A stretch of 64,000 nucleotides of DNA from the NCBI GenBank assembly GCA_949283535.1, contig CASDTC010000001.1, positions 8,540-72,539 of the forward strand, in the 5' to 3' direction. The notes beneath the pieces are model-generated. The model was given only the letters and a program-made list of their open reading frames with translations. It was not told the DNA's origin and did no database searches. The stretch is from an uncultured Pseudomonadota bacterium (GTDB taxonomy: Bacteria; Pseudomonadota; Alphaproteobacteria; Rs-D84). Positions 1-52,971 of this stretch are shown here, in pieces (position 1 is the first letter of the stretch; every line of letters starts with the position of its first letter). The position numbers and the translations under genes were made by a program.

Positions 1-1023
1 GATGTTAATGTTGCAGCGGGAATTTGCCCGGTTATTACAGAATGTGAAGAAATGATTCCGGGAATACAATCGGCCGTAAATGACAAGTTGGGGTATTTGC
101 GCACGCAATTCTGTCAAAATGATATTGATGCATGTTTGCGCGACAGATGTGGTGAAAATTTTACTGCGCCAGAATGCCTTGGTAAAAGCGCCAATGAAAT
201 TGCGGGTTTGTGTCCGCAAGATATGTTCCCATCATGTAAAAATGAAACACAATTCGATATCATTGTTCAGGCTGTGTTATTACAGATGGACTATCAAATG
301 TTACAGGGGTGCTTGAATTATTTTGGTGAACAGTTGGGTGCGGTTTGTGGAACAGATATGTCTTGTTTGCCGACTGATACTGTGACGGCGTCTTTGGTTG
401 AAATACCAGAAGATCAAGCGGGACTGGCGGAATTGCGTGAAACTGTTCGTGCAAATACCGAAGCCGCAGTTGATGAATTCTTTAAACAGTTCGAACAAGA
501 TAAAACCGTTGCGGCATGTCAAGACAGCCAGAAACCAGCAGATGGTGAAAGTCTGGGGGACAGTGTATTTAACAGTGCGAAAATGATTGCGCAAATCGGT
601 GCAGAAAATCGTGCAATGCGTGAATTAGAATCGAAAATTGCCGAATTATCACGTCAGCAAGACTTAGAAGAAGCAGAACAAAATTGCTATAATACATATC
701 AGGTTGAAACGCCTGATGAATCCAGCAAGAATTACAGTTATATCCGCAGTGTATCGTGGGAACCGTCATTGCGTAATTGTCATGTTTGCCGTATGCAACA
801 GGTTTGCGAAACAGGCGGTCAGTCCAAGGGTGCGGCAGGTGTCCAGGGATTGGCGGGCGGTCTGTCGGCGGGTGCTGCGGCGGGAACAATGGTGACGCCA
901 GGTTGGGGAACCGCAATTGGTGCTGTTGTTGGCGGACTGGGTGGATTCTTTGCCGGGCGCAGCGCCGGTGGTGAACAAGAATTCTGTCAGGAAATAGAAT
1001 CTTGCGAAGATATTAATATGTAA
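1..1023 (+). CDS. Cysteine-rich exported protein, 5'-truncated by the window edge (paralog of 1087..3591)
   Basis: Frame 1 is open from base 1 (DVNVAAGICPVITECEE precedes the first Met at 52). There are 18 Cys in the visible 340 aa. The block FCQNDIDACLRDRCGENF..LCPQD..SCKNE..VCGTDMSC aligns with the next gene. It has a CHVC-x7-CET box, a Gly/Ala-rich hydrophobic stretch (814..972) and ends CEDINM-stop. Confidence 0.6.
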   Translation, partial: DVNVAAGICPVITECEEMIPGIQSAVNDKLGYLRTQFCQNDIDACLRDRCGENFTAPECLGKSANEIAGLCPQDMFPSCKNETQFDIIVQAVLLQMDYQMLQGCLNYFGEQLGAVCGTDMSCLPTDTVTASLVEIPEDQAGLAELRETVRANTEAAVDEFFKQFEQDKTVAACQDSQKPADGESLGDSVFNSAKMIAQIGAENRAMRELESKIAELSRQQDLEEAEQNCYNTYQVETPDESSKNYSYIRSVSWEPSLRNCHVCRMQQVCETGGQSKGAAGVQGLAGGLSAGAAAGTMVTPGWGTAIGAVVGGLGGFFAGRSAGGEQEFCQEIESCEDINM

Positions 1024-1086
1024 TTTTGGACGTTTGCCCAGAATTATATTTTGCATTAATTGTATGCAGGTTTAAAGAGGCATTAA

Positions 1087-3591
1087 ATGAAATTAAAGCA
1101 TATTTTTGCGTCTGTAATCGGATTATCTGCTTTGTTGATTGGTTTGGATTCATATGGACTAACCAGAACAACAAAGCAATCGGCAATTCAACAAGGTACG
1201 ACCGTTCGCACAAAGATAGAGGCGACTGGGTTATATGACCAGGCGTGTTATGATGCATATTTTGGATGCATGGATCAGTTTTGTATAACGGATAATGCCA
1301 GTGGTGGTGCGTGCACATGCAGTGATGATATTACAGAATATGATGCCGAACTGGCAGAAATTCAGGATATTTTGAACGAGGCAAATCGTCTGCGTACCGA
1401 AGAAATTGAACGTGTTCGGGCGGGCGCAGATGCCGATATTATATTTACGGGCGAACGCAAGTATGATGCAGATGGAAATATATTGGTAGAAAGCGAATTA
1501 ACAGCAGAAGAACAAAAGGAACAGCGTCGCGCAGATTTGTTAGCGTTATTTAATACCAGCATATATGATGAAGAAGATGATACGGAATTTGATGGTTCTG
1601 TTGCCAGTATGGCGGATATGTCGGGGGCTGAATTATATCGTGCGGCTGATGATTTATGCTATGCCCAGGTTCCAGATTCTTGTGCGGGTGATATCGAATT
1701 TTTACGACAATTATATTCACGGCAAATTACATCAGATTGTCTGGGATATAAAAATTCTTTGTCCCAACAGCGGGCAGATGCAGAAGCGGATTTAGCCGCC
1801 GCCCAGTCCGAGGTTCGTGTCGCATTACAGGAAAGCTTTGAAAGTGCCAATAAATACGACTTGGGGCAATGTATGGTTGAATTTAAAAAATGCATGCAAA
1901 CAGATGATGCCTGTGGCGAAGATTGGGAAAATTGTGTTGCAACAATCGCATCTGAAAATATGCAAAATAATGAAGCGACCAGTACGGCGGGTACAACGGT
2001 GGATACGATTGATACATATGATATAACCGCGTCAACCATGAAAATCCTTAGTGCAAAGCGTCCAATTTGTGAAAATGTTTTGGACCAGTGTGTTGCAGTG
2101 CGTGACCAGGTTTGGCCGAATTTCTTGCGTGAAGCCGCACCAACAATAAAGGTTGCAGAAAGTATTGTTGAATCAAAATTCCGTCAATCTTGTTTGGGGG
2201 ATATATCAGACTGTATCCAGACCGCATGTCGCGATGATATTGCGGGCAAGGGTGTTGCAACAATGGATGCATGTTTGGCACGACCAGATATGGCACGCAG
2301 TTTCTGCAAGGTTGAAATAGACCCGTGTGAACGCATGGAACCACAAATTTGGGATTATGTAAAAGATAAATTGGCGGCAATGCGTGTTGATGCATGTACC
2401 CAGGAAGTAAAAGATTGCTTTACCGCGGATACGCGTTGTGGTGAAAATTTCCAAAATTGTATCGGTATGGATTATGAATATATCCATAATATATGTCCAA
2501 TTGATACACTGGTTGTTTGCAAGCAAAATAATCCGAATTTTTCAATGGATGATTTGGATACAATGTTAATGGGATTGTATCTGAATATTGATAATGCAAT
2601 GATGGAACAATGCCAGAATTTGGTTGATCAAAAAATGGCGGAAATTTGTGGCAGTACAACGGATTGTAATCGTTTCGCATCTGATGATACCATTGGAACC
2701 GGGTCTTTGCGTTCACAAAAAGACGGAACAGTATATCGTGTGACTGGCATGATTTCATTTGGCAGTATAAAAATGGGGGATGCAAACGGTGAACAAACAA
2801 TTGACAGTGATGGAAAAACAATTACTTTGGCACCGGGTGAAATAGGTGTTGATGAATATCTTGCCAAGATTCGTGAAACCAATGCGAATGTTGCAAATGC
2901 AGATGGTATTATATCGGCAATCGAAGAAGAATTAAATAATATCGCCGGCACAATTAATCGTACAATCGATATGATTGAACAGGATCCAGAAATACAATAT
3001 TGTGTTAATGGACGCAATTTGGAACAAATCACAGGTGAAGAAGGGGCGTCAACCACGGGGCGTTTCCCAAAACTGTTAAACCAGGTAAAAATGCAAATTG
3101 CAGTTGCCGCATTACGCCAGGCACAGGATAATTATAATGCGAAATTAAATACTGAAATTGCAGAGGCGACCAAAAATGCATCAACGGATTTGGCACAATA
3201 TATGTGTCAAAAGATTGCAGAAAATGGTGGTGCAGGGGGCGGTGATATAAATGCGTCAACGCCGTTAACACCGCCGTATGCAATCAGTTATGATGTTGGA
3301 TCTGGACTGACAACCGAAGATTTAGTCAAGGGTGGTGCCGGTGTGTTACAGACAGATGGTGTTACATTTACTAATAAAGGATATCTGGGCGGCAGCAGCT
3401 TGAATGGTGGGGGTATGACACGCCAGGTTACTGCGATATTCAGTCGTGATACCAGAACATGTCATATTTGTACGACAACAATTACACAAGATTGTAAAAC
3501 CACGGGCAGCAGCAGCTGGTTCCATAACAGTCGAAATACAGAATGTACAACAAATGCGTCAGAACCGGTGTGTGAAGATATTGTTATGTAA
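1087..3591 (+). CDS. Large cysteine-rich exported protein (834 aa, 36 Cys), unknown family
   Basis: RBS AAGAGG lies 7 nt upstream. The N-terminal signal-like segment is MKLKHIFASVIGLSALLIGL. Motifs include CMDQFC..CTCS, RCGENFQNC, CHIC-x8-CKT and a terminal CEDIVM-stop. No terminator separates it from the upstream paralog. Confidence 0.75.
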   Translation: MKLKHIFASVIGLSALLIGLDSYGLTRTTKQSAIQQGTTVRTKIEATGLYDQACYDAYFGCMDQFCITDNASGGACTCSDDITEYDAELAEIQDILNEANRLRTEEIERVRAGADADIIFTGERKYDADGNILVESELTAEEQKEQRRADLLALFNTSIYDEEDDTEFDGSVASMADMSGAELYRAADDLCYAQVPDSCAGDIEFLRQLYSRQITSDCLGYKNSLSQQRADAEADLAAAQSEVRVALQESFESANKYDLGQCMVEFKKCMQTDDACGEDWENCVATIASENMQNNEATSTAGTTVDTIDTYDITASTMKILSAKRPICENVLDQCVAVRDQVWPNFLREAAPTIKVAESIVESKFRQSCLGDISDCIQTACRDDIAGKGVATMDACLARPDMARSFCKVEIDPCERMEPQIWDYVKDKLAAMRVDACTQEVKDCFTADTRCGENFQNCIGMDYEYIHNICPIDTLVVCKQNNPNFSMDDLDTMLMGLYLNIDNAMMEQCQNLVDQKMAEICGSTTDCNRFASDDTIGTGSLRSQKDGTVYRVTGMISFGSIKMGDANGEQTIDSDGKTITLAPGEIGVDEYLAKIRETNANVANADGIISAIEEELNNIAGTINRTIDMIEQDPEIQYCVNGRNLEQITGEEGASTTGRFPKLLNQVKMQIAVAALRQAQDNYNAKLNTEIAEATKNASTDLAQYMCQKIAENGGAGGGDINASTPLTPPYAISYDVGSGLTTEDLVKGGAGVLQTDGVTFTNKGYLGGSSLNGGGMTRQVTAIFSRDTRTCHICTTTITQDCKTTGSSSWFHNSRNTECTTNASEPVCEDIVM

Positions 3592-3595
3592 TTAT

Positions 3596-3620
3596 AAAAA
3601 CGGGATTTTTCCCGTTTTTA
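3596..3620 (+). terminator. Rho-independent terminator
   Basis: aaaaacggga-tttt-tcccgttttta immediately after the stop at 3591. Confidence 0.8.
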
Positions 3621-3701
3621 TATGGAATAATTTTCCTAGACTTTTTTATAAATAAATGTGATATTATATTATAGCACATAAACAACAAAGGGGGAATAAA
3701 T

Positions 3702-4079
3702 ATGAAAAAAGTGTCAATAATGGCGGCGGTATGCGCATTGGTTGCTGGGGCGGCACATGCGGATTTCCAGCCAAATACACCACAGGCAACATCACCAATG
3801 GGTGGTTTTGTTGGTGGTACAGAAAATATCGTAACGGTCAGCCAGGTAAAAGAAATGCGTGATGATACACCTGTTATTATCCAGGGGAATATTGTTCAAC
3901 GCATGGGCGATGAAAAATATTTATTCCAGGATTCAACAGGATCAATAACGGTTGAAATCGATCGCAAGGATTGGCGTGGTCAAACAGTTACACCGTCTGA
4001 TAAAGTAAAACTGTATGGCGAAGTTGATTCTGGTTTGTTTAAAACCGAAATTGACATTGATTATGTCGAAAAAATGTAA
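3702..4079 (+). CDS. YgiW/YdeI-type periplasmic OB-fold (BOF) stress protein
   Basis: RBS GGGGGA; signal peptide MKKVSIMAAVCALVAGAAHA. The core VTVSQVKEMRDDTPVIIQGNIVQRMGDEKYLFQDSTGSITVEID..VKLYGEVD is typical of the family. Confidence 0.8.
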   Translation: MKKVSIMAAVCALVAGAAHADFQPNTPQATSPMGGFVGGTENIVTVSQVKEMRDDTPVIIQGNIVQRMGDEKYLFQDSTGSITVEIDRKDWRGQTVTPSDKVKLYGEVDSGLFKTEIDIDYVEKM

Positions 4080-4080
4080 T

Positions 4081-4106
4081 AAAAAACGCCCCGCGGGGCG
4101 TTTTTT
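4081..4106. terminator. Bidirectional rho-independent terminator
   Basis: aaaaaacgccccgcggggcgtttttt lies between convergent genes. Confidence 0.8.
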
Positions 4107-4171
4107 ATTGTATTATCATTGTTGTTTTAATTGCCAATAATTTTATGGTGCATTTATATTTACATAATTAT

Positions 4172-4951
4172 TTAATATCTTCCATAATAATCACACCATT
4201 TCCCTGGGTCGCTGGGGTCAATTATAATACCAGAAGGAGCACCAGTTGCACCCGTAATTTCATATGTACCAGCGGTATCGGTTACAACACTGGTATTTGC
4301 CAGATAGCATTGTCCGATGCTGGTTGCGCCGCCACTGGCGACAAAGGGCAGCGGGTCGCCCCCACCAACACGGGCGCTGCTGCTGACGGTCCAGTTTCCT
4401 TCATCCCCCGATCCTGTTGTCGGATTTGGACATTTTGCACATGATAAACCTGACTGATAATATCCAGGATTGCAATAAAATCTTGATTCGCCTGTATTGC
4501 AATTTGCATTTGCTGGACATTTTTTACAACCGGATGTTTCACTGGTGGCGGTGCCATAATAACCTTTGCCACATTTATAGTTATCTTTGGCAACGGAATA
4601 ACAGGACCCCAATCGACCAATCAGGTGTCCCGTGCTAGTTTCTTCATATTCACCGCATGTTTCTGTGTATGTATATGTTTGATAAACATATACACCGTAT
4701 TCGTTTGGATCGCCAGTGGCGCTACTATCAGTTATTCCGTGGCTTTTTATTGCCCGGCACATTTCTTCACATGTATCATACTCTGTTCCATTCCAATATC
4801 CACCCGGCATTAAACTTTGGTCACATTTTGAACAAGTCGTTGGCAGTATAGTTGTCGCATAAACCGAGTTGCAAAATGTGCATGCACATAACATTAAACC
4901 ACCGATTATTTTCGGCATTTTTATTTTAGAAAAAATTCCAGAAATCTGCAT
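4172..4951 (-). CDS. Small cysteine-rich secreted protein with CxxCP / GYY repeats
   Basis: RBS GGGGGA 8 nt upstream; signal peptide ..IIGGLMLCACTFCNSVYA. Repeats are CGKGYYG..GCKKCPANANC and CNPGYYQSGLSCAKCP. The C-terminal module GGATSIGQCY..KWCDYYGRY is shared with 18560..18919. Confidence 0.7.
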   Translation of the reverse strand: MQISGIFSKIKMPKIIGGLMLCACTFCNSVYATTILPTTCSKCDQSLMPGGYWNGTEYDTCEEMCRAIKSHGITDSSATGDPNEYGVYVYQTYTYTETCGEYEETSTGHLIGRLGSCYSVAKDNYKCGKGYYGTATSETSGCKKCPANANCNTGESRFYCNPGYYQSGLSCAKCPNPTTGSGDEGNWTVSSSARVGGGDPLPFVASGGATSIGQCYLANTSVVTDTAGTYEITGATGAPSGIIIDPSDPGKWCDYYGRY

Positions 4952-9047: not shown

Positions 9048-9671
9048 ATGAAAGAAAATCCAACATTTGATATAGAAAATAATTTAGGGTTTGATTTAAT
9101 CGCCGGTGTGGACGAGGTTGGGCGTGGTCCGCTGTGTGGGCCAGTCGTTGCGGCGGCGGTTATTTTCCCACGGCGTGATGTTGAAATTCCGGTTATTATT
9201 CGTGATTCAAAACAAATGACGCATAATATGCGCGGCGCGGCGTATGATTGGATTGTACATAATACGATTTGGGCGGCGGGGCAATGCAGTGCAGGGGAAA
9301 TTGATGAATTAAATATTTTAAATGCATCATTATTGGCAATGCGGCGGGCGGTTGAAAAATTGTCGTGTGTGCCGCAATTTTGCCTGGTTGACGGGAACAA
9401 ATTGCCGCCGGATTTGAATGGTATGGCGGTTGTAAAGGGTGATGCAAAATCGCTGTCTATTGCGGCGGCATCGATTGTTGCCAAGGAAACGCGTGATAAA
9501 ATCATGCATGATTTGGCGCGTCAATATCCGATGTATGCGTGGGATAAAAATGCGGGTTATCCAACCCCAGAACATTTGCGTGCCATCGAAAAATATGGTA
9601 TAAATCAGCATTATCGAAAAAGTTTTAAACCAATAAAAGAAAGGATTGAAGATGAAACTGCGCGGAATTGA
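9048..9671 (+). CDS. rnhB: Ribonuclease HII
   Basis: GVDEVGRGPLCGPVVAAAV, DSKQM and LVDGNKLP motifs. Confidence 0.9.
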   Translation: MKENPTFDIENNLGFDLIAGVDEVGRGPLCGPVVAAAVIFPRRDVEIPVIIRDSKQMTHNMRGAAYDWIVHNTIWAAGQCSAGEIDELNILNASLLAMRRAVEKLSCVPQFCLVDGNKLPPDLNGMAVVKGDAKSLSIAAASIVAKETRDKIMHDLARQYPMYAWDKNAGYPTPEHLRAIEKYGINQHYRKSFKPIKERIEDETARN

Positions 9672-10932: not shown

Positions 10933-11766
10933 TTATTCCGCTTCGTCCAATGCCGATTCGATTTGATCAGCCGGGATTGCGCCTGGGAACGCTTTTTCAC
11001 CGATAATCAAGAACGGTGTTCCGCTGATTTCAAAACGCTGTGCCAAATCGCGAACATTTCTTAATTCACGGGCAACAACTTCGCCATCCATATCTTTTTT
11101 CAACTGTTCTGTATCCAGACCAGCTTCTTTTGCGAATTTCATAACATTTTCTTCGACTTTATCAGCCAATGTTGATTGGTCTTTCAGGTCATCTTGTGTA
11201 TAGAATTCGCGTGTCATTAACATATTTGTTAATTCGGCTGCCTTTGCAGGATCTTGCATATTTGCAGCAATAACTGCGCGTGCCGGACCATCTGATAATG
11301 GACCATGGATAGAGAAGTTCTTTATAACAACGCGTGTGTCATCGCGATCTGCCAATACGCGTTCGATTTCACCATGTACGCGGCGGCAATATGGGCAAGA
11401 GAAGTCTGTCCAAACATAGATTGTCTTTTTCGCGTCACGATTTCCCAAAACTGGGGCATCACGCATCATTTTATCGCCGTCGGAACGAACATATTTACGA
11501 ATTTGTTTGTTCTTTTCAGCCTGTTGCTGTTCTTGCATGCCGTTGACCATTTCCTGAACGATTGCCGGGTTAACAGCAGTCAGGTAATATGGCATGTACA
11601 TGCGGCACATGCTGCCTGAAATCAGGATAATTGCAATTACTGCAATGCATTTGTTTGCAACAATTTTTCCAGCAGATGGATTTTTTGCATCGCCCTTTGG
11701 CAGCAGCATGCCACCAAACAGAAACAGCAGAACACCAACCACCAGAACCAATATTGTCCAAGTCAT
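10933..11766 (-). CDS. Membrane-anchored DsbA-family thiol:disulfide oxidoreductase
   Basis: Strong RBS AAGGAG; two N-terminal hydrophobic segments; thioredoxin-fold active site WTDFSCPYCRRVH. Confidence 0.8.
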   Translation of the reverse strand: MTWTILVLVVGVLLFLFGGMLLPKGDAKNPSAGKIVANKCIAVIAIILISGSMCRMYMPYYLTAVNPAIVQEMVNGMQEQQQAEKNKQIRKYVRSDGDKMMRDAPVLGNRDAKKTIYVWTDFSCPYCRRVHGEIERVLADRDDTRVVIKNFSIHGPLSDGPARAVIAANMQDPAKAAELTNMLMTREFYTQDDLKDQSTLADKVEENVMKFAKEAGLDTEQLKKDMDGEVVARELRNVRDLAQRFEISGTPFLIIGEKAFPGAIPADQIESALDEAE

Positions 11767-29398: not shown

Positions 29399-32300
29399 TT
29401 ATTCCCAACTGACAATCCATGATGTTGGCGATGTTATAGTGCAACTGTTTCCATTTCCGCCCCATGCATTTTGGTTATCATACTGCTGGATGCACTCATC
29501 ACCATTGGAATCACGATAAAAGTTCTTTGGGTATGGTGTTACGGGATCTTCAATGGTATTGTCTTCATAGCGTGGGGTTAAATATGTTCCTGATTTTGAT
29601 ACCTGTACATATTTGCCGCCGTTGCAATTTACGGTTCGCCCCGATGGAAAATCGTCTTGTGTTTCTGAACCTTCAACATTGCCACCAATGCATAATATAT
29701 ATGTAAGATCATTGCCAGAACCGTATGCAGCGACAAATGTTATGTTTGTGTTGGACGGTGGCAGGCATAAACCAGCTTCAGGCATGTTTGTGGTATTGGA
29801 ATTGAAATATGCAGAATTTGTATCCCAATTTAGCCCTTTTATTTCTGTGTCTGTTGTACCATTAATACAGCATTTTCCAGATGTATCTGTTGAACCAACG
29901 GTGCTTTGGTCTCTTTCTGTGGCGGCGCAACAATTGTCCATACCATTTTCATCAATTGCGTTGGTTCGCAGATATGGTGGAACGGGACAATACCATCCGT
30001 CATCAGAGAGTTCACTATTTGAAATGCATATAGTTATACCGTCAACCAGATCTGGTATATAACCCGGTCCGCATGATGTATCACGACAGCTGTCAACATC
30101 ATCTTGGGTATTTGTATTCTTGGCAAACCACGATAACAGGGTGTCGGTGGATTTATCGTCTGGCATTTTAATTCTGTTATGTGAATTTTCTGCGGATAAA
30201 TTTGCTGTTGGATGGGTTTCGCAATTGCCCCATATGCTTTCCGCAATGCGGCATACATGACATTCATTAGAGTTTGGATTTGTGGCGCAATATTCGCTGG
30301 CACAAATGTCATAAATACATTCTTCGTTGTCGGATGTTATGCAGATTGTTTTCAGTCCTTCGTCTGTGCCATCTGTTGTGATATATTGTTCTGATGGATT
30401 GATACCATACATTTGTTCATAGAATTTTCCGTCTATTATTGTTCCGTTGGCAACCAATTGCGCTGTTATTTGGTCAATTGCATCGGCGCCGGCACTGGCA
30501 ACACAATTATATACTTCGTCCCAACATGCCGTGCGGTTAATAATAGATTTTCTGTTAACGGATGTTTGAATATTTTCACACAGACCAAAATTACCAGATA
30601 TAGATTTACATGATTGTATTATACAATTGCGACCAACTTCGCGGCATGTTTGTAATATTGTTTCATATGTTTTGTCATTTGCAATTTCTGTCATGCCAGA
30701 TGACCAATCAGTTCCACCGTCAACTGTATCCAATAATGCGGTGCAGGATGCCTGGACTTCGGCACACATTTGTTTTACGGTTTTATCTGCGGCAACACCA
30801 AATATAGATAGTGCACGGGCATCGAAATCTTCCAGTGATTCTGCGGCGTCAGATAAGCATTGGGCGGTTAATGTGGTGCATGACTGGCGAACTTCTTCCA
30901 GTTTGGCATCTTGTGCCAATTTTATTTGCGCCAATGCATCATCAATAAATTGATCCCATACTGTGTCGGCAATATCTTCGCAATTTTCAGTTGCAGATTC
31001 CAAGAACATCTTTTTAGAATTTAAGTATGATACAAATTTTTCGTTGCCGGGTGCGCTGGTCCATGTTTGGTTGCCAGATGGGCGGGTAATCAAACTGCCC
31101 AGGTTGACCAAGTTTGATGTTAATATTGCTTCACCGGTTGATGGGTCAATATATTGACCACTGATATCCAAACATTTTTCCAGATTTTCACCACATACAG
31201 ATGTACTGCTTAACATATCCAGCATTTTGCGTTTGCATGTTAAAATATCATCAGAATTGCGGGTCTGGTAATCGTCCAGACGCGACATATCCAGTAATGC
31301 ACTGCTTTCCAGTATTTGTTCGCGTGCCTGGTTTTGTTGTGTTTGATATGTCTTGGCAACGGTATTGCAATCTTGTTCAATTAACATTTGATATCCGCTT
31401 TCTGCGATGGATAATTCATTGGTGGTGCAAACCTCCATCGCCATTTCGCGACATACTGGTAATGCCGCGTTATATAAATCTGTTCCAGATTTTGCAGTCG
31501 TTGATGTGCCGGATAAAGAATCCAAACTGTCAAATGCTGCATCTGTATTCAATGATAACGATATAGGGGCCAGGTTTGCATCAAAACTGCTGGTGTCGAA
31601 TGTAGTATTTAATTTGTCGGCAATTTCATCCAATAATTTTTTTGAATCGGATGTGTCGTCTTGGTTAAATGCGATTTCGCCTTCGGTTGCCTGGTATAAT
31701 GCTTCGGCGTCTTCTTTATCCATATTAACGGTCAACAAGCGTTGGCTGAAATCTAACAGTTTGTCTTCCACTTCTGCCAGTTGGGCTTTGACATCATCAA
31801 ATTCATTCGCACGGGCAGAACATGCACAGCGTTTTAATTGACTGTCTTTATTGGCACAGAATTCGTCCATGCAATTATAAAATACATTGCGGCATGTGGT
31901 GTAATCACGGTTTATTATTTCTTCGGCAGTTATTGCCGCACGCGATATACGCGCGCCAGATGTCGCACTGCGCGCGGTGGTGTTTTTTGCAGGGGTGGTT
32001 ATTGTGCGCGCAGATGTTGCCGCACGCGATATCGTTGATGTTGTACCATTGTCGCGTGCATTTGATGTGGTTGTTGTAATGGTTCGACTGCCAGGGCGCG
32101 TGGCATTTGTTGTTGCGGTGCGTGCGCTGGATACAGATGGTACAGATATCACACCAGATTTATTAACCGTTGCACGGGGCATAACATTTGATGTCGTGCG
32201 CGCAGATACGGCCTGTGATGTGTTTTCTGTTGTGGTGCGTGTGCCACTGTCGCGAACAACAACACTAGTGCGCGCAGTCGTTGTGCGTTCGCGTACATTT

Positions 32301-32530
32301 TGCGTCGTTTCTGTATTTTGTTGGCGCGTTGTTGCGCGCGATATTCCCGATATTGCATTTGCGCGTGATGATATGGACGCGGTACCAGATTCACCACGAT
32401 TTGACACGACTGTTGTCGCCGCGCTGCGTCGCGTGGCCGCGCGTGCCATATCGGCATCATCGTTCGCATATGCGCATTGAATTCCAATAAACGCAATGCA
32501 TGTCGCCAAAAATAATTTGATTCCTTTCAT
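29399..32530 (-). CDS. Giant cysteine-rich exported protein (1043 aa), third paralog of the 1..3591 family
   Basis: Signal peptide MKGIKLFLATCIAFIGIQCAYA, then about 190 aa of T/S/R/A-rich low complexity. Family motifs are YNCMDEFC..CACS, CGENLEKC and ECHVCRIAESIWGNCET. The C-terminal extension contains SCGPGYI. Confidence 0.75.
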   Translation of the reverse strand: MKGIKLFLATCIAFIGIQCAYANDDADMARAATRRSAATTVVSNRGESGTASISSRANAISGISRATTRQQNTETTQNVRERTTTARTSVVVRDSGTRTTTENTSQAVSARTTSNVMPRATVNKSGVISVPSVSSARTATTNATRPGSRTITTTTSNARDNGTTSTISRAATSARTITTPAKNTTARSATSGARISRAAITAEEIINRDYTTCRNVFYNCMDEFCANKDSQLKRCACSARANEFDDVKAQLAEVEDKLLDFSQRLLTVNMDKEDAEALYQATEGEIAFNQDDTSDSKKLLDEIADKLNTTFDTSSFDANLAPISLSLNTDAAFDSLDSLSGTSTTAKSGTDLYNAALPVCREMAMEVCTTNELSIAESGYQMLIEQDCNTVAKTYQTQQNQAREQILESSALLDMSRLDDYQTRNSDDILTCKRKMLDMLSSTSVCGENLEKCLDISGQYIDPSTGEAILTSNLVNLGSLITRPSGNQTWTSAPGNEKFVSYLNSKKMFLESATENCEDIADTVWDQFIDDALAQIKLAQDAKLEEVRQSCTTLTAQCLSDAAESLEDFDARALSIFGVAADKTVKQMCAEVQASCTALLDTVDGGTDWSSGMTEIANDKTYETILQTCREVGRNCIIQSCKSISGNFGLCENIQTSVNRKSIINRTACWDEVYNCVASAGADAIDQITAQLVANGTIIDGKFYEQMYGINPSEQYITTDGTDEGLKTICITSDNEECIYDICASEYCATNPNSNECHVCRIAESIWGNCETHPTANLSAENSHNRIKMPDDKSTDTLLSWFAKNTNTQDDVDSCRDTSCGPGYIPDLVDGITICISNSELSDDGWYCPVPPYLRTNAIDENGMDNCCAATERDQSTVGSTDTSGKCCINGTTDTEIKGLNWDTNSAYFNSNTTNMPEAGLCLPPSNTNITFVAAYGSGNDLTYILCIGGNVEGSETQDDFPSGRTVNCNGGKYVQVSKSGTYLTPRYEDNTIEDPVTPYPKNFYRDSNGDECIQQYDNQNAWGGNGNSCTITSPTSWIVSWE

Positions 32531-32872: not shown

Positions 32873-34336
32873 ATGAGAAAAGCATCCTTGTTTATATTGG
32901 CGTTTTTACCATTTGCGGCACATGCGGCGGGAACATATTATACCGGCGCATATCAATCGCCACAGACGCGTTATTCAACACAAACATATGCCCAGCGTCA
33001 AACAGGCTATAACCGCAGTTATACAACGCCATCGTATGCCAGTACGCGGTATAATACCACGGCAACACAAAATGCTGCAAATAATACAACGCAACGCGTT
33101 GCAACCAATACTACGCAAGCACAGTCATCAAAAAAATCTGGATTTTGGTTGGATGCGGGAATTACGCATGAAATGGCGCAATGGCAATTTAGTATGAATC
33201 AATCGGGCAGTATTTTAAGTTATGATAATATTGCATGGAATGTTTTGGATGTTAGTGCTGGTTATGCATTCGATGTTGGCAGTACTACTTTACAAGTTGA
33301 TGCCGGATTTAAATACGGTATGCAATGGGGCGAAAACGCCATGTATGATGATGATATTACAAATGGTGGATATTTGGTTACATCATGGACAGGTGATGTT
33401 AATGATGATCAAGAAGCAGACAGTGGTACATTTGATCAGATTGGGCATGCGATGTCAATCGGTACCAGCCAGGGCGGAAATATGATGGAATTTAATGTGG
33501 GCTTTGGTTTGACAGATGTGTTTAAGATTGGAAATATGTCGATTACACCATCGGTTGGATATCGCTACTTAAAATATAAACTGGAAACAGAAAAGAACTA
33601 TGGTTTGGCGGTTGATACGCATGCGTGTTTCGAAATTGATGGTGAAATTCAATGTGATCCGGCATTGATATTTAATTTTGATAATGGAAACCAGGCGATT
33701 ATTTGGCGTGATGATATAACTGTGCCTGTAAAAATTCCAGATGGGTCAACCAGTGTTGATACGGCAGGAACATATTATTATCAACAGCCGGGGGTCAGCC
33801 ATTCTTATGAAACAACATGGGCGGGACCATATATTGCATTAGATATGGATTATATCATTAATCAAAATAATGCAGTAAATGGACATATAGAATTAGGATT
33901 CCCAGGATATACATCCGAAGGTGATCAGCCATATCGTTTTGACTGGGCGCATCCAAAAAGTGTCGAAGACGAAGCAGGTATGTTCAGTGCATTCCATTTT
34001 GGTTTGGGGGCGAATTGGACAACGGCAATAACAGATGCAGTTGCATTATCAATTGGATTGACATATGATTACTATACCGTCAGTGGCGCGGATGCAAAAA
34101 CATACTTGAATGAATCGTACTATACAGATATGTATAATGCGATATTAAATCAAGAAGGTGCGCCGTGGCAGGGAAATGAAACAGCAATGTTGGATCCAGA
34201 AACGGGCAGTCCAACCGCAATAAATATCAAGGCGTTGGAAGAACAATGCCCCGGATGGGTTTGTTCAACGGGCGGTGAAGTAGATTCTTTCTATAAGGCA
34301 CTGGGGATACGTGTTGGTATAAATGCAAAGTTTTAA
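32873..34336 (+). CDS. Outer-membrane beta-barrel protein with T/Q/Y/R-rich N-terminal region
   Basis: Signal peptide MRKASLFILAFLPFAAHA. After a low-complexity stretch come many amphipathic strands, and the terminal beta-signal is GIRVGINAKF. Confidence 0.7.
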   Translation: MRKASLFILAFLPFAAHAAGTYYTGAYQSPQTRYSTQTYAQRQTGYNRSYTTPSYASTRYNTTATQNAANNTTQRVATNTTQAQSSKKSGFWLDAGITHEMAQWQFSMNQSGSILSYDNIAWNVLDVSAGYAFDVGSTTLQVDAGFKYGMQWGENAMYDDDITNGGYLVTSWTGDVNDDQEADSGTFDQIGHAMSIGTSQGGNMMEFNVGFGLTDVFKIGNMSITPSVGYRYLKYKLETEKNYGLAVDTHACFEIDGEIQCDPALIFNFDNGNQAIIWRDDITVPVKIPDGSTSVDTAGTYYYQQPGVSHSYETTWAGPYIALDMDYIINQNNAVNGHIELGFPGYTSEGDQPYRFDWAHPKSVEDEAGMFSAFHFGLGANWTTAITDAVALSIGLTYDYYTVSGADAKTYLNESYYTDMYNAILNQEGAPWQGNETAMLDPETGSPTAINIKALEEQCPGWVCSTGGEVDSFYKALGIRVGINAKF

Positions 34337-35895: not shown

Positions 35896-38268
35896 TTATT
35901 TCACAACGCTGAATTTTATGCTGGTTCCTGTGCCCATTTCGTCAATTATTTTTATAATATGATCGCCCATTGGAACTGTATGACGAAATGTTTCGCCAGA
36001 TGTACCCGTGTGAATTAATTTATCATCCAAGAACCAAAACATTTTTGCGTCTGTTATGTCTGATATGGCGCGGAATGCTATATCTTCATAATCTTTATCA
36101 GATGTTATTACGGTTCGTGTGCCGTCAATTGGTGACATTATCACAGGTGGATTACGGTGTGCGGCGATATCGTCTAAATTACATCCAGGCATAAATGGTG
36201 GTGGGGTGTTGCGATGGATGCCGGCGCGTTGAAACATATCCAGATATTCGGCATCCCAAAATTCATATATGCGCATTTTGGTCGTTTTGGGATTCCTGGT
36301 GCATGCGCGCAGCCCTGTTTTTATATCAATTGGAACCGCACGATAAATTGTTGATGTTTCAATTGGCGATTTGCCAGGAATAAAATATGCCATTGTTGTT
36401 TTAGGACAATATTTCCCCGCCAATCCACCAACACCATCGCACATTTCTATTTCTGATATATTTAAATCATTGCGCCAGAAATTATTATTTTTTATTGGAT
36501 GACCGTGTGTTGCATAATATTTTTCAACTGTGCGCGCCAATGAAAAATATATTGGTGCCGCGGTTTTTGCACCACTGAATGCATTATTTGGGGTGCCGTC
36601 AAAATTACCAACCCAAACAATTAACACAAAATCACCAAATATTCCCGCGGTCCATGCATCGCGAAATGATGATGATGTGCCAGTTTTCCAATAATGACGC
36701 AGTGTATTTGTTTGCTGCTTTGCAAATGGAATATTTTTTGTTGGGGTTGATTGGCGTGCCAACATGTCCATTACTATAAAAAATGCTTCTGGACTTAATA
36801 TTTGTTTCCTGGTGTTTGATTGTGTGGCGGTTTCTGTGTGAATCCCGTGGCGTAGCCCCAGGTTTGCCATTGTTGCATATATATCCGCCAGTTCCAACAT
36901 TGATACTTCGGCGCCGCCCAATGCAACAGATATTCCGTAATAGTCGGGCGATTTCAGATTTGATACACCGGATTCAGATAATATTTTATAGAAATTTTTG
37001 GTTCCTATTTTCTTTAATAAATTGATTGCCGGAATATTTCGCGAATGTGTCAGGGCATCCCGCGCCAATACTGGACCATAAAATTCGCTGTCGGCGTTTT
37101 CCGGGGCATATACACCGAAATTTATTTTTGCATCTTTTAACAATGTCATCGAATGTATAAATCCCATGTCAACTGCTGTTGCGTATATTAATGGTTTCAG
37201 GGTTGAACCAGGACTGCGGCGTGCGCGAACACCATCGTTTTCGCCATATATTGATTTATCAAAATAATTAACAGAACCAATATATGATAATACATCCATC
37301 GTTTTATAATTTAATAAAATTGCCGCAGCATTTTGCACACCGATACTGTGGCGGCGTGCGATTTCATTTGATAATGTGCGTTCCATGGCAGATTGTAAAT
37401 CTGTGTCCAGTGTTGTTCGAACCGCCCAATTATGCGGACCCATATCGTTCCAATAATTATTATATTTTGCGGATACATAATTAACAAAATGTGGTGCGCG
37501 AAACGGTAATTTCTGTGTCGTGCGGGCATTTAACGGCATTTGTGCCAGTGTTGCCAGGGTGGCATCTTCTGGGTTTTGTTCAATCCAGCGCCGAACCAGG
37601 TCTGTACGCATGTTCATTATATTCTGGATACCTGTTTTGGTGTTCAGACCGCGTTTTATCGGATTTTGTGGGATTGTTGCCAGGGTAATGGATTCAATTT
37701 TTGATAATTCAGATGCGGGTTTATTAAAGTATATTAATGATGCGGCACCAATGCTTTCGATATTACCACCATATGGTGCCAGGTTTAAATATGCTTCTAA
37801 AATTTCGTCTTTGGAATAAAACATATCGATATAAATTGCCGCGGCAATTTGTTTCAGTTTTCCCCAGATTTGTCGTGTATCCATGTCGTATTTCATGCGG
37901 GCAACCTGCATCGTTATGGTTGATGCACCAATTTGTCGGGCGGCGTCAGCAGAAAAATAGTTCTTTGCTGCCCGAACCAATGCGATTGGGTTTATCCCGG
38001 GATGATATTTAAAATATTTGTCTTCATATAAAATTGTTGCCTGTTGTAATGTTTGGCTGATTTCGGATAATGGTGTATACAGACGATATTTTTCATCTGC
38101 GGTCAGTGTTATACGCATTAATTCCCCATTTCTGTCCAGGTATGCGCGACCAAAGTGCGTATCGGATAACAGTGGTGGGGTGAAAAAGAGTTTTATTATT
38201 ATGTATGCAATTACAAATATTGCAATTATTGTAAATAAAATCCAATGACGGCGAATGTATGCCGTCAT
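35896..38268 (-). CDS. pbpC: Penicillin-binding protein 1C (start uncertain: 38268, 38310 or 38313)
   Basis: N-terminal TM segment; glycosyltransferase motifs ILYEDKYFKYHPGINP and STITMQVAR; transpeptidase SxxK (GSTLKP); C-terminal PbpC-type domain. Confidence 0.85.
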   Translation of the reverse strand: MTAYIRRHWILFTIIAIFVIAYIIIKLFFTPPLLSDTHFGRAYLDRNGELMRITLTADEKYRLYTPLSEISQTLQQATILYEDKYFKYHPGINPIALVRAAKNYFSADAARQIGASTITMQVARMKYDMDTRQIWGKLKQIAAAIYIDMFYSKDEILEAYLNLAPYGGNIESIGAASLIYFNKPASELSKIESITLATIPQNPIKRGLNTKTGIQNIMNMRTDLVRRWIEQNPEDATLATLAQMPLNARTTQKLPFRAPHFVNYVSAKYNNYWNDMGPHNWAVRTTLDTDLQSAMERTLSNEIARRHSIGVQNAAAILLNYKTMDVLSYIGSVNYFDKSIYGENDGVRARRSPGSTLKPLIYATAVDMGFIHSMTLLKDAKINFGVYAPENADSEFYGPVLARDALTHSRNIPAINLLKKIGTKNFYKILSESGVSNLKSPDYYGISVALGGAEVSMLELADIYATMANLGLRHGIHTETATQSNTRKQILSPEAFFIVMDMLARQSTPTKNIPFAKQQTNTLRHYWKTGTSSSFRDAWTAGIFGDFVLIVWVGNFDGTPNNAFSGAKTAAPIYFSLARTVEKYYATHGHPIKNNNFWRNDLNISEIEMCDGVGGLAGKYCPKTTMAYFIPGKSPIETSTIYRAVPIDIKTGLRACTRNPKTTKMRIYEFWDAEYLDMFQRAGIHRNTPPPFMPGCNLDDIAAHRNPPVIMSPIDGTRTVITSDKDYEDIAFRAISDITDAKMFWFLDDKLIHTGTSGETFRHTVPMGDHIIKIIDEMGTGTSIKFSVVK

Positions 38269-38293
38269 GGATTTTAATATTTGTAAAAATTTG

Positions 38294-41200
38294 TTATTTT
38301 TCTGCACCATCATATACGGTAAATGTGCCAGATTTTCCCATCGCATTAATTTGTGGGTTATACATTGATTGGGCAGAAACTGGTGGAATACTGAATTTAC
38401 CGGCAACCCCCAATTGAGCAGTGTATGTAAATTCTGATTCTGTGCGGTTCAGGTCGGTGTATATCAATACCCGATCTTCACGCATTTCAGAAAATTCAGC
38501 GTTCCCGTTTACAGAATCTATGGTTGGTATGAAGCCGCCTGGCAACAGGTCTGTGATTACAACATTGTCGGCGACATCAGTATTGTTGCGTGTGCGTGCA
38601 AATATTTTTACGGTTATAATACCGCCGATATTCCCAGATGTTATTTTATTACCGTTCATATCATAATATTCACGAATAATTTCGATACCATTTGAATATT
38701 GTGCGGTGGTTGTTGGATAACCTTGCTGTATTATTGTGTAATACAGTGTATTATTGTCATTACAATCGTTGCATATTATATTTAATTCAGATGTATCAGA
38801 TGGAATATTCATCATTATGGCATTGTTTTCTGGGGTAATTATTTTTGCGCCTGAATCATTTAATGCAATCGATATTTCTGGCAATTCAGTCGCATTTGAT
38901 TTTTGACCAGACATTGCCATTATTACCGCTGCAGATGTGTATGCGCTGTAATCGCCAGAATTTATATATTTGCGTATGGCGTCTGATTCCGTTGCATCAT
39001 TGTGTGTATTAAAATATTTTGTCGCCATGTAATAATACATTGAATCATTCGCAACGCTGTTGTCAAACATTGCATTGTATGCGAATTTTGAATTTGATGA
39101 TAATTTATATTTTGTAATTAAATCGTATGCTAAATCATCTTGCTTTAATATTTTATACGATGTTGCAATGTATGTTCCCATCAGTTTCGATTGCCAATCT
39201 GGTATATTTTCATTGGCGTATTGGGTGAATGTATCAATATAACTGGTTGTTACATAATTGTTTTCAGAAATAACATATATTGCATATGCCATTGCTGCTG
39301 CGTATGTGTCGTCTGTTATTGTGGCACCCGCAAAACTGCGCAGGTAATCGATCGCACGCGATAACATTTGGTCTGGAACTGTGAATCCCGCATCATTTGC
39401 AATTGTTAAAAACTGTGCAACATATGCGGTTAAATATGCCGTATTGGCGTCATTTTCAGGTGTGATACCCGTTGACCATAATGCAAACGAACCATCATCA
39501 TTTTGACGATTTTTTAACAGATTTATTGTTTCTGTGATTTTTTTCGCCGATGTGTCAAATGTTGTCCCCAATATTTTATCATCTGGGAACAAGGCATATG
39601 GCATTGCACGTGATACCAATTGTTCTGTACACGGCAGGTCATATTTTGACAGATATTCATATAATGGTATTACCATTGCCGTTGCGCCACGGGTTATATA
39701 AATGCGATTTGTTGCAAATTCTGGGTACATTGATATCAGAAAATCTGTCGCGTTTGTTTTTGATGAATTTATTTCACCAAATTTAATATTTGTTGTAAAC
39801 GGTGTAATTGGACGCACTGATAGTGTGTTTATGGCATTGCGTGTTGCCAATGTCTGGTCATCAGGTGATGTCAGGCGGGCATTTGTTGTTATTTCGGCAT
39901 TGCCCAGTTTATCAGTGGCGCGTGCATCAAATGTAAATAATTTTTCTGATTCAAATGGCACAATTGCACTTGCGGTGGTATTTGTTATTTCAATGTCATC
40001 GGTTGAATTTATTGATACAGATGCATTGGCAGATGTACCACTGTCGCGTGTCATGTTCGTTATTACTGAATTTATTTTAAACGAATCGTTTGGCGCAATA
40101 AATGTTGGTGCAGATGTAGATATTATTAACGGTGATTGAACCAATGTTTTTGTGTCTGTGGCACCAACCGCGTTGTCACGTGCGGCAATTGCAAATACAG
40201 TAATTTCACCATTAAAGTATTCAGGAATATCAAATTCAACGGTGCCTGGTTTATTTGCCTGGGCGTTAATAATGCCAGAATAGAACGCAACTGGTGGTAA
40301 TGTACGGCGTGCAAATGGATTATTTGTGATTTGTTCCAATGCGCCTGCATCCCCACCGTAATCACCACCACCAGTTTTCGCATATTCACGTAATATGTTA
40401 TATTCAGGCAACAATAATGATAAAATTTGATATGTATTTACCTGTAATGCAGATTTTTGAAAGAAATGTGCCAATGGATTTGGAATTTGATATTTTGCAA
40501 CCTGTAATATGCCATGATTAATTGCAAAAATCATCATTCTGGCGGATTTATCAGATGTGTATTTTACGGTTAATTTATTATCCGTAATTATTTCTGGGGT
40601 TTGTAATTTTATATTTATATTATGTGCCGATGTGTCGGATGCAAATGGTGCAACCGCATATGCATATGGGATTGTGAATATATCGTGGCTGTTTATATCA
40701 CGGACAAATGATACATTGATGTACCCAGTACCTTCAAATCCAGATGGAACGGTTATATGTTGTACAGATGTTGTAGATTTTGTTTTAAACCATTTGTACG
40801 CATATACTTTGTCGCGTTCGATTGTTATTAATCCAGTGCCAATATATGGCGCGGTTATGTTAATTTCGATTTCTTCGCCCGGGGCATATTCGGTTTTATC
40901 CAATTTTATTTGTAATTCTGCGTTTGTGTCTGTTTCCAATGTTGTATTTTCGCCTGCAACAAAATATTCAATATTTGTCAATATTCGGTCTGATGAATCC
41001 AATATTTGCAGGAAATATGTTCCGCTGTTTTTTGTGTTTAATGTAATATCTGTTCCTGTTTGTGGAATGTCGATTTTGGATTCTGATACGATTTTATCTG
41101 ATGAAACAGTTTGGTATTTATAGTAATTATTATAGTCTTTGACCAATGTGGTTTTATTTTCACGGCGCATCAGGCGCATTGTTAAGCCTTTTGCCACAGT

Positions 41201-44062: not shown

Positions 44063-44242
44063 GTGAAACCCCTTCCTGCTTAATGTATTTATATTAGATG
44101 CGAAAAGGTGAAAAAACAAGTCAAATTAATTAATTTTTTGCACATGTATATTTTTATGAGATTTTGTCTGTGTAAAAACTGGGGAGCGGCTTTTATGGGG
44201 CGAGAATGCGTGTGTTTGCCAACAGATAAAAAGGGGTAGAAT

Positions 44243-51528: not shown

Positions 51529-52971
51529 ATGTTAAAGAAGTTGCTGATTTTTGTGGTTTTATTAATGCCTGTTGTGGCATCGGGGGCGGATAAAGCAAAA
51601 AAAGACGAACCTGTTGAGCATTTAACAGATGAACAAATTTATGAGCAATTAAAAAAATTAGCGTTGGTGTTTGAAACTGCGCGGGATTCTTTTGTCGAAG
51701 AAGCAGATGAAAAAAAGATGCTGGAAGCGGCAATGAATGGTATGTTGCAGGCGTTGGATCCGCATTCATCGTATTTGTCGGCGGATGATTTCAAAGAATT
51801 TAATGATAAATCCCAGGGGGAATTTGGTGGACTGGGGATTCAAATAACCAGTGACAGGGGTGCCGTGCGTGTTATTTCGCCAATTGATGGAACACCAGCG
51901 GACAAGGCTGGTATCAAGGCGGGCGATTATATAACACATATTGATGGTGAACAGGTTTTTGATATGACTTTGAATCAGGCGACAAAAAAAATGAAAGGTC
52001 GCCCAGGAACCAAGGTTAAATTAACAATTATATCCGAAGGTGAAGAACCGCGTACAATTACATTAAAACGCGATATTATCAAGGTTGAATCCGTGAAATA
52101 TGAAGAAAAAACAATGGCGGGTATGGAAGATGATGAAGATGCCGATAAAATTGGCTATATTCGTATTTCAGATTTTGGTGCAACAACAGCGAAAGAATTG
52201 AACAAGGCATTGGAAAAGTTGGAAAAGAAAGATGTTATTGGATATGTTTTAGATGTTCGGAATAATCCGGGGGGATATTTGACTGCCGCAATTGATGTGT
52301 CTGATGCATTCTTGGATGGTGGTGAAATTGTTTCAACACGCGGTCGGCGCGAAACAGATATTGAACGCAATTTTGCAAAGCCGGGTGATTTGGCAAATGG
52401 CAAGCCAGTTGTTGTATTGATAAACCATGGTTCAGCATCTGCGTCTGAAATTGTTGCGGGTGCATTGCAAGATAATGGACGGGCGCTGGTTATGGGGTCG
52501 CAATCTTTTGGCAAGGGCAGTGTTCAACAGCAAAAGCCATTGGGTGATGGCACCGCAATACATATTACAATTGCGCGGTATTATACACCGTCTGGGCGAT
52601 CAATTCAGAACGAAGGAATTACCCCAGATGTAGAAGTCTTGCAGAGCAAGGTAGAGGTTCTGGAACGCAAAGAAAGTCTGTATTCAGAAGCGTCATTTAA
52701 AAACGCATTAAAGAATGAAGAATCGGAAAAGAAAAAGAAAGATAAATCTGATGATGATGACGATAAAGAATTAACAGATGCAGAAAAAGATGCGTTGGAT
52801 TATCAATTGCAACGCGCGATGGATATGGTGCGGGCAATGTCTAAATTACAGGCGCACGCCAGTATTGTCCCGGCAACGCCCGATGATCCAATTGCCATGG
52901 AAATAGATGCGGGTGATGCCGCCACATCGGATGATAAAAAGTCTGATGATAAGAAATCAGATAAAAAGTAA
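51529..52971 (+). CDS. ctpA: Carboxy-terminal processing (tail-specific, S41) protease
   Basis: PDZ domain (GGLGIQITSDRGAVRVISPIDGTPADKAGIKAGD) and catalytic GSASASEI / KG. The charged tail ends SDDKKSDDKKSDKK. Confidence 0.9.
   Translation: MLKKLLIFVVLLMPVVASGADKAKKDEPVEHLTDEQIYEQLKKLALVFETARDSFVEEADEKKMLEAAMNGMLQALDPHSSYLSADDFKEFNDKSQGEFGGLGIQITSDRGAVRVISPIDGTPADKAGIKAGDYITHIDGEQVFDMTLNQATKKMKGRPGTKVKLTIISEGEEPRTITLKRDIIKVESVKYEEKTMAGMEDDEDADKIGYIRISDFGATTAKELNKALEKLEKKDVIGYVLDVRNNPGGYLTAAIDVSDAFLDGGEIVSTRGRRETDIERNFAKPGDLANGKPVVVLINHGSASASEIVAGALQDNGRALVMGSQSFGKGSVQQQKPLGDGTAIHITIARYYTPSGRSIQNEGITPDVEVLQSKVEVLERKESLYSEASFKNALKNEESEKKKKDKSDDDDDKELTDAEKDALDYQLQRAMDMVRAMSKLQAHASIVPATPDDPIAMEIDAGDAATSDDKKSDDKKSDKK

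Follow-up and report, generated by a model that had tools for sequence, protein, structure and literature searches.

A conserved tandem of cysteine-rich exported paralogs in Candidatus Enterousia, with a predicted beta module at the shared C-terminus

The DNA analysed here, called the window below, is a stretch of 64,000 nucleotides from an uncultured alphaproteobacterium. It belongs to the order Rs-D84 (Candidatus Enterousia), a widespread lineage of the gut whose members have genomes of 0.75-1.0 Mb, do not respire and show no obvious transporters for nutrients (PMC12306168). Bacteria of this order have reduced genomes, are presumed to be partner-dependent, and are thought to live off other cells (PMC12306168). 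At the beginning of the window lie two open reading frames of the same strand, ORF1 and ORF2, which encode large cysteine-rich proteins and are the subject of this report; their features are collected in Table 1. The fragment of ORF1 contained in the window has 18 cysteines, terminates with ...FCQEIESCEDINM and has its stop codon at 1021-1023. Its full-length counterpart in a relative 94% identical (L001:7787-9937) encodes 716 amino acids (aa), with a signal peptide and 36 cysteines. An earlier note on this DNA had attributed a signal peptide and 36 cysteines to the complete copy, and this was found to be correct for ORF2. It had also described a gap of 63 nucleotides (nt), a ribosome-binding site AAGAGG, and no terminator before about 3596. 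All three were confirmed: folding of the spacer gave a z-score of -0.85, which is not significant, and the only terminator is placed 3′ of ORF2. Because the spacer is short and the terminator single, ORF1 and ORF2 very probably form one co-transcribed operon.

Table 1. Positions, in the window, of the gene pair, of elements predicted within it, and of two further genes
Feature	Position	Strand	Remarks
ORF1, 3′ part only	1..1023	+	last 340 of about 716 codons; gene start outside the window; frame open from base 1
ORF1 beta strands 1-2 and CHVC box	733..816	+	strands predicted by AF2 at aa 245-254 and 259-272; C260 (778-780), C263, C269
ORF1 glycine-zipper hydrophobic hairpin	814..972	+	aa 272-324; insert in the loop between box and tail strands; AF2 pLDDT <50
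ORF1 last strand, EFCQEIESCEDINM	976..1020	+	strand predicted by AF2 at aa 326-339, pLDDT about 88; C328, C335; hexapeptide at 1003-1020
Spacer ORF1-ORF2	1024..1086	+	63 nt; ribosome-binding site AAGAGG at 1075-1080, 6 nt ahead of the ATG
ORF2	1087..3591	+	834 aa, 36 Cys, isoelectric point 4.3; Sec-type signal peptide at about aa 1-25; ends ...VCEDIVM
ORF2 Cys-rich all-helical core (predicted)	1240..2649	+	aa 52-521; helices only, mostly pLDDT 84-95; opens with the family signature
ORF2 C-terminal beta module (predicted)	3415..3588	+	aa 777-834; CHIC box (C792 at 3460-3462, C795, C803), C820, CEDIVM (C829)
Intrinsic terminator hairpin	3593..3622	+	3′ of ORF2; folding free energy -16.8 kcal/mol, z -4.6; 0 of 200 shuffles fold equally well
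DsbA-like periplasmic thiol-disulfide oxidoreductase	10933..11766	-	Pfam DSBA E 3.7e-20; 7 kb from the pair
Third family paralog	29399..32530	-	1043 aa, 44 Cys; family profile E 1.4e-40; same helical core, different C-terminal region

The two products are related, as had been proposed: BLASTP aligned them with 32% identity across 129 aa (E 1e-16), along the same stretch as the alignment of the earlier note. Both end, directly before the stop, with a hexapeptide, CEDINM in ORF1 and CEDIVM in ORF2 (3571-3588). When the stop codons are included, 18 of 21 nt are identical, slightly more than the 17 or so first counted. A CH[VI]C box is likewise present in both, the CHIC of ORF2 beginning at 3460 and not at 3459. 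Two details of the initial description had to be revised for ORF1. The seven to eight residues reported after the box are seven in ORF2 and five in ORF1 (CHVC-RMQQV-CET), and the Gly-rich segment thought to precede the box in both copies is located, in ORF1, between box and tail. A recent duplication, or gene conversion between the two genes, was rejected, as they have no DNA repeat in common. Judging by their sequences, ORF1 and ORF2 are ancient paralogs maintained in a conserved, tightly spaced tandem.

Orthologs of ORF2 were searched with a 12-sequence alignment as query, and were found in 80 genomes of related Enterousia or other Alphaproteobacteria, with 62-94% identity. The tandem was kept in 76 of the 80, most exceptions corresponding to a contig end, and in the 67 species that allowed the ends of both genes to be positioned, the median length of the spacer was 25 nt. 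The conservation of the cysteine columns, a check that the earlier note had put forward, was complete over 77 sequences (36/36 in ORF2, 18/18 in the ORF1 fragment). The terminal hexapeptide was retained as well: the ORF1 tail, EIESCED[IV]NM, is nearly invariant in the 76 loci, the ORF2 tail reads CEDIxM, and M is the last residue of every one of the 76 ORF1 orthologs and of nearly every ORF2 ortholog. Being conserved in 76 orthologous loci, the pair, its cysteines and its tails are evidently not due to chance. The ratio of non-synonymous to synonymous substitution rates (dN/dS), computed against six relatives, was 0.03-0.10 across both genes (0.06-0.10 for ORF2), which indicates that both genes are functional and subject to strong purifying selection. 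Together with synteny and the intact state of ORF1 in other genomes, this rules out a non-coding interpretation, as well as the possibility, envisaged earlier, that the upstream ORF is a pseudogene. The same type of pair was encountered on two contigs filed under 'Bacteroides fragilis' and 'Muribaculaceae' assemblies (L050 and L084), probably as a result of mis-binning.

Beyond these orthologs, a HMMER search of 1.84 billion cluster representatives returned 726 clusters (50% identity) at E<=0.001, and 229 at E<=1e-30. The source labels met were all of uncultured alphaproteobacterial, proteobacterial or Rickettsiales metagenome-assembled genomes (MAGs), the close homologues being from Candidatus Enterousia and alphaproteobacterial gut MAGs. 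In an alignment of 75 diverse members, about 30% identical, 27 cysteine columns were invariant and 5 more were conserved in at least 90% of the sequences. We define the family by a signal peptide, an N-terminal signature C-x6-C-MD-x-F-C-x9-C-x-C-S, about 27 invariant cysteines and a predicted helical core of about 500 aa, a definition that the pair fits. The family hidden Markov model matched ORF2 at E 3e-289, full-length ORF1 at 3.4e-92 and the ORF1 fragment at 1.5e-23.

Structures were predicted with AlphaFold2 (AF2), from the 75-sequence alignment for ORF2, and from the 340-aa window fragment for ORF1. The ORF2 model had a mean predicted local distance difference test score (pLDDT) of 81, and a predicted template-modelling score (pTM) of 0.49. 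Following a disordered segment (aa 1-41, signal peptide and linker), it consists of the all-helical core, in which some helices reach 35-58 residues and two loops are disordered (aa 154-172 and 297-309), then of a further helical region (aa 588-712), and of a Gly-rich segment (aa 713-776) with loops, in part of low confidence, and short strands. The chain ends with a predicted antiparallel sheet made of strands 777-786, 791-806 (the CHIC box), 817-824 and 828-833 (the tail), the pLDDT at the end being 85-92. The model of the ORF1 fragment (mean pLDDT 73) has the same plan, and pairs the box strand (259-272) with the tail strand (326-339), the glycine zipper being placed between them. The segment that carries the first two strands and the box of ORF1 is also its most conserved stretch (0.95 over 77 orthologs).

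The cysteines of this C-terminal module were then compared across the family. In the alignment of 75 members, C795, the second cysteine of the box, and C829, the cysteine of the tail, occurred together in 33 sequences and were missing together from 37, while 5 had only one of the two (phi 0.87; 0.86 in a set of 50 members). On a tree built from the helical core the two states are intermingled, each with no fewer than 15 changes. C803 and C820 co-occur less strictly (phi 0.59), and C707 and C792 are invariant. Three disulfides would be expected to give this pattern, one of them latching the last strand to the box strand, and we propose such a latch because C795 and C829 co-occur. We take the shared tail to be, most probably, the closing strand of a small sheet stapled by disulfides rather than a free sorting signal.

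ORF1 carries an insertion in the loop that joins the box and tail strands, and the earlier note had described it as a glycine-zipper-like stretch; a weak match to the Pfam family Gly-zipper_Omp (E 0.005, below cut-off) is in keeping with that description. The scores were 17.2 bits for PF13488 (cut-off 25) and 11.1 for PF13441 (cut-off 28.9), so that both fail. The insertion is a hairpin with abundant GxxxG motifs; it is about 53 residues long and has a TPGW turn at its centre. The hydrophobic repeat (GLAGGLSAGAAAG ... GWGTAIGAVVGGLGGFFAG) has glycines that are conserved in orthologs, with a common pattern GG..AGA..GTM...GWGTAIG. Its hydrophobicity is modest (maximum 1.21 in a 19-residue Kyte-Doolittle window). 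A comparable insertion is present in distant anchored paralogs, where a P-V-x-G-W turn is conserved and the helices are truly membrane-like (Kyte-Doolittle 1.7-2.9). A hairpin brings the chain back to the same side of the membrane, which fits the predicted pairing of the box and tail strands, and we think that it probably anchors ORF1 to a membrane. The anchoring role once suggested for the C-terminus thus stays plausible by way of this hairpin, and not by way of the hexapeptide. No lipobox was found in ORF1 orthologs: they start with MKL..LPG.A.A|A.R.., of the signal peptidase I type, and have no cysteine at +1. Small outer-membrane lipoproteins with a glycine zipper (SlyB/Pcp and the Rickettsia 17-kDa antigen; PF13488, PF05433, PF13441) share with ORF1 the GxxxG two-helix hairpin, and ORF1 matches their models weakly, which suggests that its hairpin dips into a membrane in a similar manner. 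They differ in that the hairpin of ORF1 is inserted in the beta module of a 716-aa disulfide-rich protein devoid of lipobox, and is not the body of a small lipoprotein. Glycine-zipper lipoproteins are proteins of the outer membrane; for a strongly hydrophobic hairpin, arrest at the inner membrane would be more likely.

The earlier note could assign the pair to no characterised family, and our searches led to the same conclusion. Against Pfam and NCBIfam, ORF2 had no match and ORF1 had just the sub-threshold glycine-zipper match; no recurrent family emerged when 50 diverse members were scanned individually against the same two libraries. Searches of PDB by sequence and profile gave nothing significant, the K7/K11 designs and AMA1 appearing at E>=0.05 (the AMA1 profile was best, at E 0.065). 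Foldseek, run against PDB and the viral library BFVD, returned no confident match to a known fold: neither model had a PDB match below E=1, and nothing below E 0.04 was obtained in BFVD with the ORF2 model. A similarity of the C-terminal sheet to levivirus coat proteins was of low template-modelling score and not significant, and was discarded. As far as we searched, in these libraries and in the literature on Enterousia and Rs-D84, the family is undescribed. With no match in PDB, it has the appearance of a new fold.

Taken together, these observations led us to the following explanation, to which we give an even chance: the pair, from a lineage-specific family of acidic proteins, would be an anchored (ORF1) and an unanchored (ORF2) version of a Sec-exported, DsbA-oxidised helical rod with a latched C-terminal beta module, serving envelope architecture or partner contact. 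Both proteins would be exported by Sec and oxidised by DsbA in the periplasm. Their export, already suspected, is supported by the Sec-type signal peptides and by the DsbA homologue encoded nearby, which is likely the oxidant of these proteins. Each would take the form of an elongated rod of helices, held by as many as 18 disulfides. Box (CH[VI]C) and tail (CEDI[NV]M) would not be separate signals, being predicted as neighbouring strands of one small sheet; a disulfide (C795-C829 in ORF2) would latch the tail strand onto the box, and the hydrophobic I-x-M residues of the tail presumably pack on the sheet. In ORF1 the loop between the two strands would have grown into the glycine-zipper hairpin that dips into the membrane, so that the C-terminal module would form a membrane-proximal base from which the rod projects. 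ORF2, which lacks the anchor, would probably associate with ORF1 or with another component of the envelope. The likely role would be in cell-envelope architecture, or in contact with partner cells, for a presumed obligate symbiont or parasite; as a best guess, the proteins would be structural or contact components of the cell envelope.

Several points weigh against this explanation. The latch is deduced from covariation; with just 34 residues between C795 and C829, exchange of the whole C-terminal module between paralogs could mimic it. For a plain edge strand, the final ten residues of ORF1 are conserved more strongly than would be needed, which leaves room for a recognition role. The pTM of the models is just 0.49-0.57. 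Finally, distant anchored paralogs are not always found beside a soluble one: for three of them there was either no such neighbour or too little flanking sequence, and 'anchored beside soluble' was abandoned as a general rule. Pairing of the ORF1/ORF2 type appears specific to Enterousia.

The conservation of the tail is at the origin of another interpretation, close to that of the earlier note, in which the extreme C-terminus (hydrophobic-x-hydrophobic-COOH, here I-x-M) acts as a signal recognised by some machinery of sorting, anchoring or processing, for instance a PDZ protease such as a CtpA homologue, or a receptor like the beta-barrel assembly machinery (BAM). We are doubtful of it. The tail motif, of consensus E-x-C-[EQ]-D-I-[QK]-[MF] in the family, coincides with the exact C-terminus in 47 of the 75 diverse relatives, as it does in every one of the 76 ortholog pairs, the ORF1 tail is among the top 6% of conserved windows, and an S41/PDZ C-terminal processing protease of the CtpA type is encoded in the window (51529-52971, plus strand), which says little since S41 proteases are found in almost all bacteria. 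Many members, moreover, end with -IQF, -YQY or -YKY, and thereby resemble the YxF ending of porins, that is, the beta-signal of outer-membrane proteins and the ligands of PDZ domains. Unlike these, the Enterousia copies end with M, while outer-membrane proteins encoded near these genes end with F (IF, KF, DF), and an outer-membrane barrel with an aromatic end, as expected of a BAM substrate, is predicted in neither AF2 model. The motif is followed by 1 to 105 residues in 28 of the 75 relatives, being internal in 37% of diverse members, and a signal needing a free carboxyl end is disfavoured for this reason, at least family-wide. The tail is furthermore predicted to be an integral strand of a soluble sheet rather than a free peptide, and its cysteine covaries with that of the box. 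A sortase, exosortase or rhombosortase plan (LPXTG, PEP-CTERM or GlyGly-CTERM motif, transmembrane helix and basic tail) was not found, and none of the NCBIfam sorting-signal models matched. The last 130 residues of ORF2 contain no hydrophobic segment (top 19-residue Kyte-Doolittle window 0.38), and the hydrophobic stretch of ORF1 leads into a 16-residue strand that is conserved, acidic and cysteine-containing, unlike sortase-type tails. The tag reading, in its simple form of a free sorting or processing signal, is probably wrong.

Two other proposals concern the function of the whole proteins. An ortholog 84% identical to ORF2 (UniRef100_A0A9D1JWE5) is named 'IncF plasmid conjugative transfer protein TraN', which would make the pair mating-pair stabilisation adhesins of a conjugation system. 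TraN (PF06986, TIGR02750) is indeed a large Sec-exported envelope protein of Gram-negative bacteria, with 22 conserved cysteines all thought to be disulfide-bonded (PMC9246713). The label is nevertheless unsupported, and we consider a TraN-like role extremely improbable. The Pfam TraN and TIGR02750 models matched neither ORF1 and ORF2 (E<=1) nor the 50 relatives (E<=0.1); hhalign gave a probability of 0.4% for the family profile against F-plasmid TraN; and tblastn against 72,556 plasmids found no match. The N-terminal half of TraN is mostly beta, with a beta-sandwich 'tip' (PMC9246713), whereas aa 52-521 of ORF2 are predicted as helices only, a comparison made by description and not by superposition; the cysteines number 36 against 22. 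The genes, finally, are chromosomal core genes with housekeeping and envelope neighbours (infA, BOF/YgiW, OmpA-like genes, ribosomal proteins, DsbA, RecO), and no tra gene was seen among those scanned in the window and in related flanks. Variable surface antigens, or effectors and toxins directed against hosts or competitors, with the glycine-zipper members as pore formers, appear improbable too. They are suggested by the presence of several paralogs per genome, sometimes clustered, by a related lineage in which one C-terminal module is duplicated as a 320-nt inverted repeat, and by weak matches to the effector family BTH_I2691 of the type VI secretion system (E 7e-5), which are limited to 2 of 50 members. 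ORF1 and ORF2, in contrast, are single-copy syntenic orthologs whose low dN/dS is the opposite of an arms-race pattern, and no secretion-system or immunity gene was found among the neighbours scanned.

For the preferred reading, as anchored and unanchored envelope rods, two other systems offer a comparison. The chlamydial proteins OmcA and OmcB are also disulfide-bonded envelope proteins of an obligately partner-dependent bacterium with a reduced genome. As a further parallel, the window codes for a porin homologue of the Pom family (Protochlamydia), and an autotransporter close by has faint Chlam_PMP matches. No homology to OmcA or OmcB was detected, and a role in replacing peptidoglycan is not needed here because the organism keeps its peptidoglycan machinery (PBP1, SLT, OmpA-like proteins). 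The adhesin domains of eukaryotic parasites (DBL, AMA1) are helical or mixed scaffolds with conserved disulfides, belonging to exported families with multiple paralogs. The resemblance goes no further: the AMA1 match mentioned above is not significant, Foldseek gave nothing, and the genes studied here are conserved, not variable.

Further members of the family are encoded in the vicinity. The third paralog listed in Table 1 has a stretch of about 200 aa of low complexity, rich in Ser, Thr, Arg and Asn, after the signal peptide, and contains an internal CHVC-like box (ECHVCRIAESIWGNCE) as well as a Cys-rich C-terminal region without the CEDIxM tail. It adjoins the gene of an outer-membrane protein of the Protochlamydia Pom family (32873-34336, plus strand, E 2.5e-13). 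A fourth paralog is situated just upstream of the window (L001:4765-7287, minus strand), so that at least four paralogs of 700-1050 aa are found inside about 75 kb; the four large paralogs are acidic, with isoelectric points of 4.3-4.7. At the end of the fourth paralog are repeats that resemble those of an exported 259-aa protein encoded within the window (4172-4951, minus strand). The latter has 18 cysteines and repeated C..GYY and CxxC motifs; its furin-like and EGF Pfam matches are weak and sub-threshold, and it fits no family. Between its gene and the convergent BOF/YgiW gene, a perfect GC-cored palindromic hairpin flanked by A/T runs (4073-4114) looks like a bidirectional terminator.

Clusters of four or more paralogs were also observed in a distant lineage. 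The inverted repeat mentioned above lies on such an alphaproteobacterial contig (L088:8356-8675 and 9116-9435) and corresponds to the 3′ end of one paralog, that is, its C-terminal module and 50 nt. Its arms are 95% complementary and 440 nt apart, and the second copy ends a minus-strand ORF of 220 aa with an Ala/Gly-rich hydrophobic N-terminus. The repeat could be a gene-conversion or inversion cassette. Two observations on other envelope genes may be added. An autotransporter gene near the pair and outside the window (L001:1604-3973) has faint Chlam_PMP matches. Farther into the window, a PBP1C-type penicillin-binding protein with transglycosylase, transpeptidase and BiPBP_C domains (35896-38406, minus strand) is found beside a 1941-aa alpha-2-macroglobulin (38294-44119, minus strand). 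Pairing of alpha-2-macroglobulin with PbpC is a known arrangement, and it is retained even in this genome of less than 1 Mb.

A wider picture, which we put forward as a speculation rather unlikely to hold in full, is that the family is the building block of an undescribed envelope or contact structure in obligately partner-dependent gut Alphaproteobacteria. It would be made of new-fold rods with about 18 disulfides each, set on bases formed by the latched beta modules, some of them plugged into a membrane by the glycine-zipper hairpin, and ORF1 and ORF2 would form an anchored-plus-soluble heterodimer for attachment to partner cells or exchange with them. The case also shows how a wrong name, here 'TraN', spreads in databases. 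In practical terms, the family now has a defined signature, a model of its structure, and a predicted disulfide latch that can be tested. The proteins come from an uncultured but ecologically common lineage, and their family is an orphan with an unusual load of disulfides and probably a new fold. Strong purifying selection, and a number of conserved disulfides that is exceptional for a bacterial protein, mark these proteins as good candidates for a part in the envelope or contact machinery of such bacteria.

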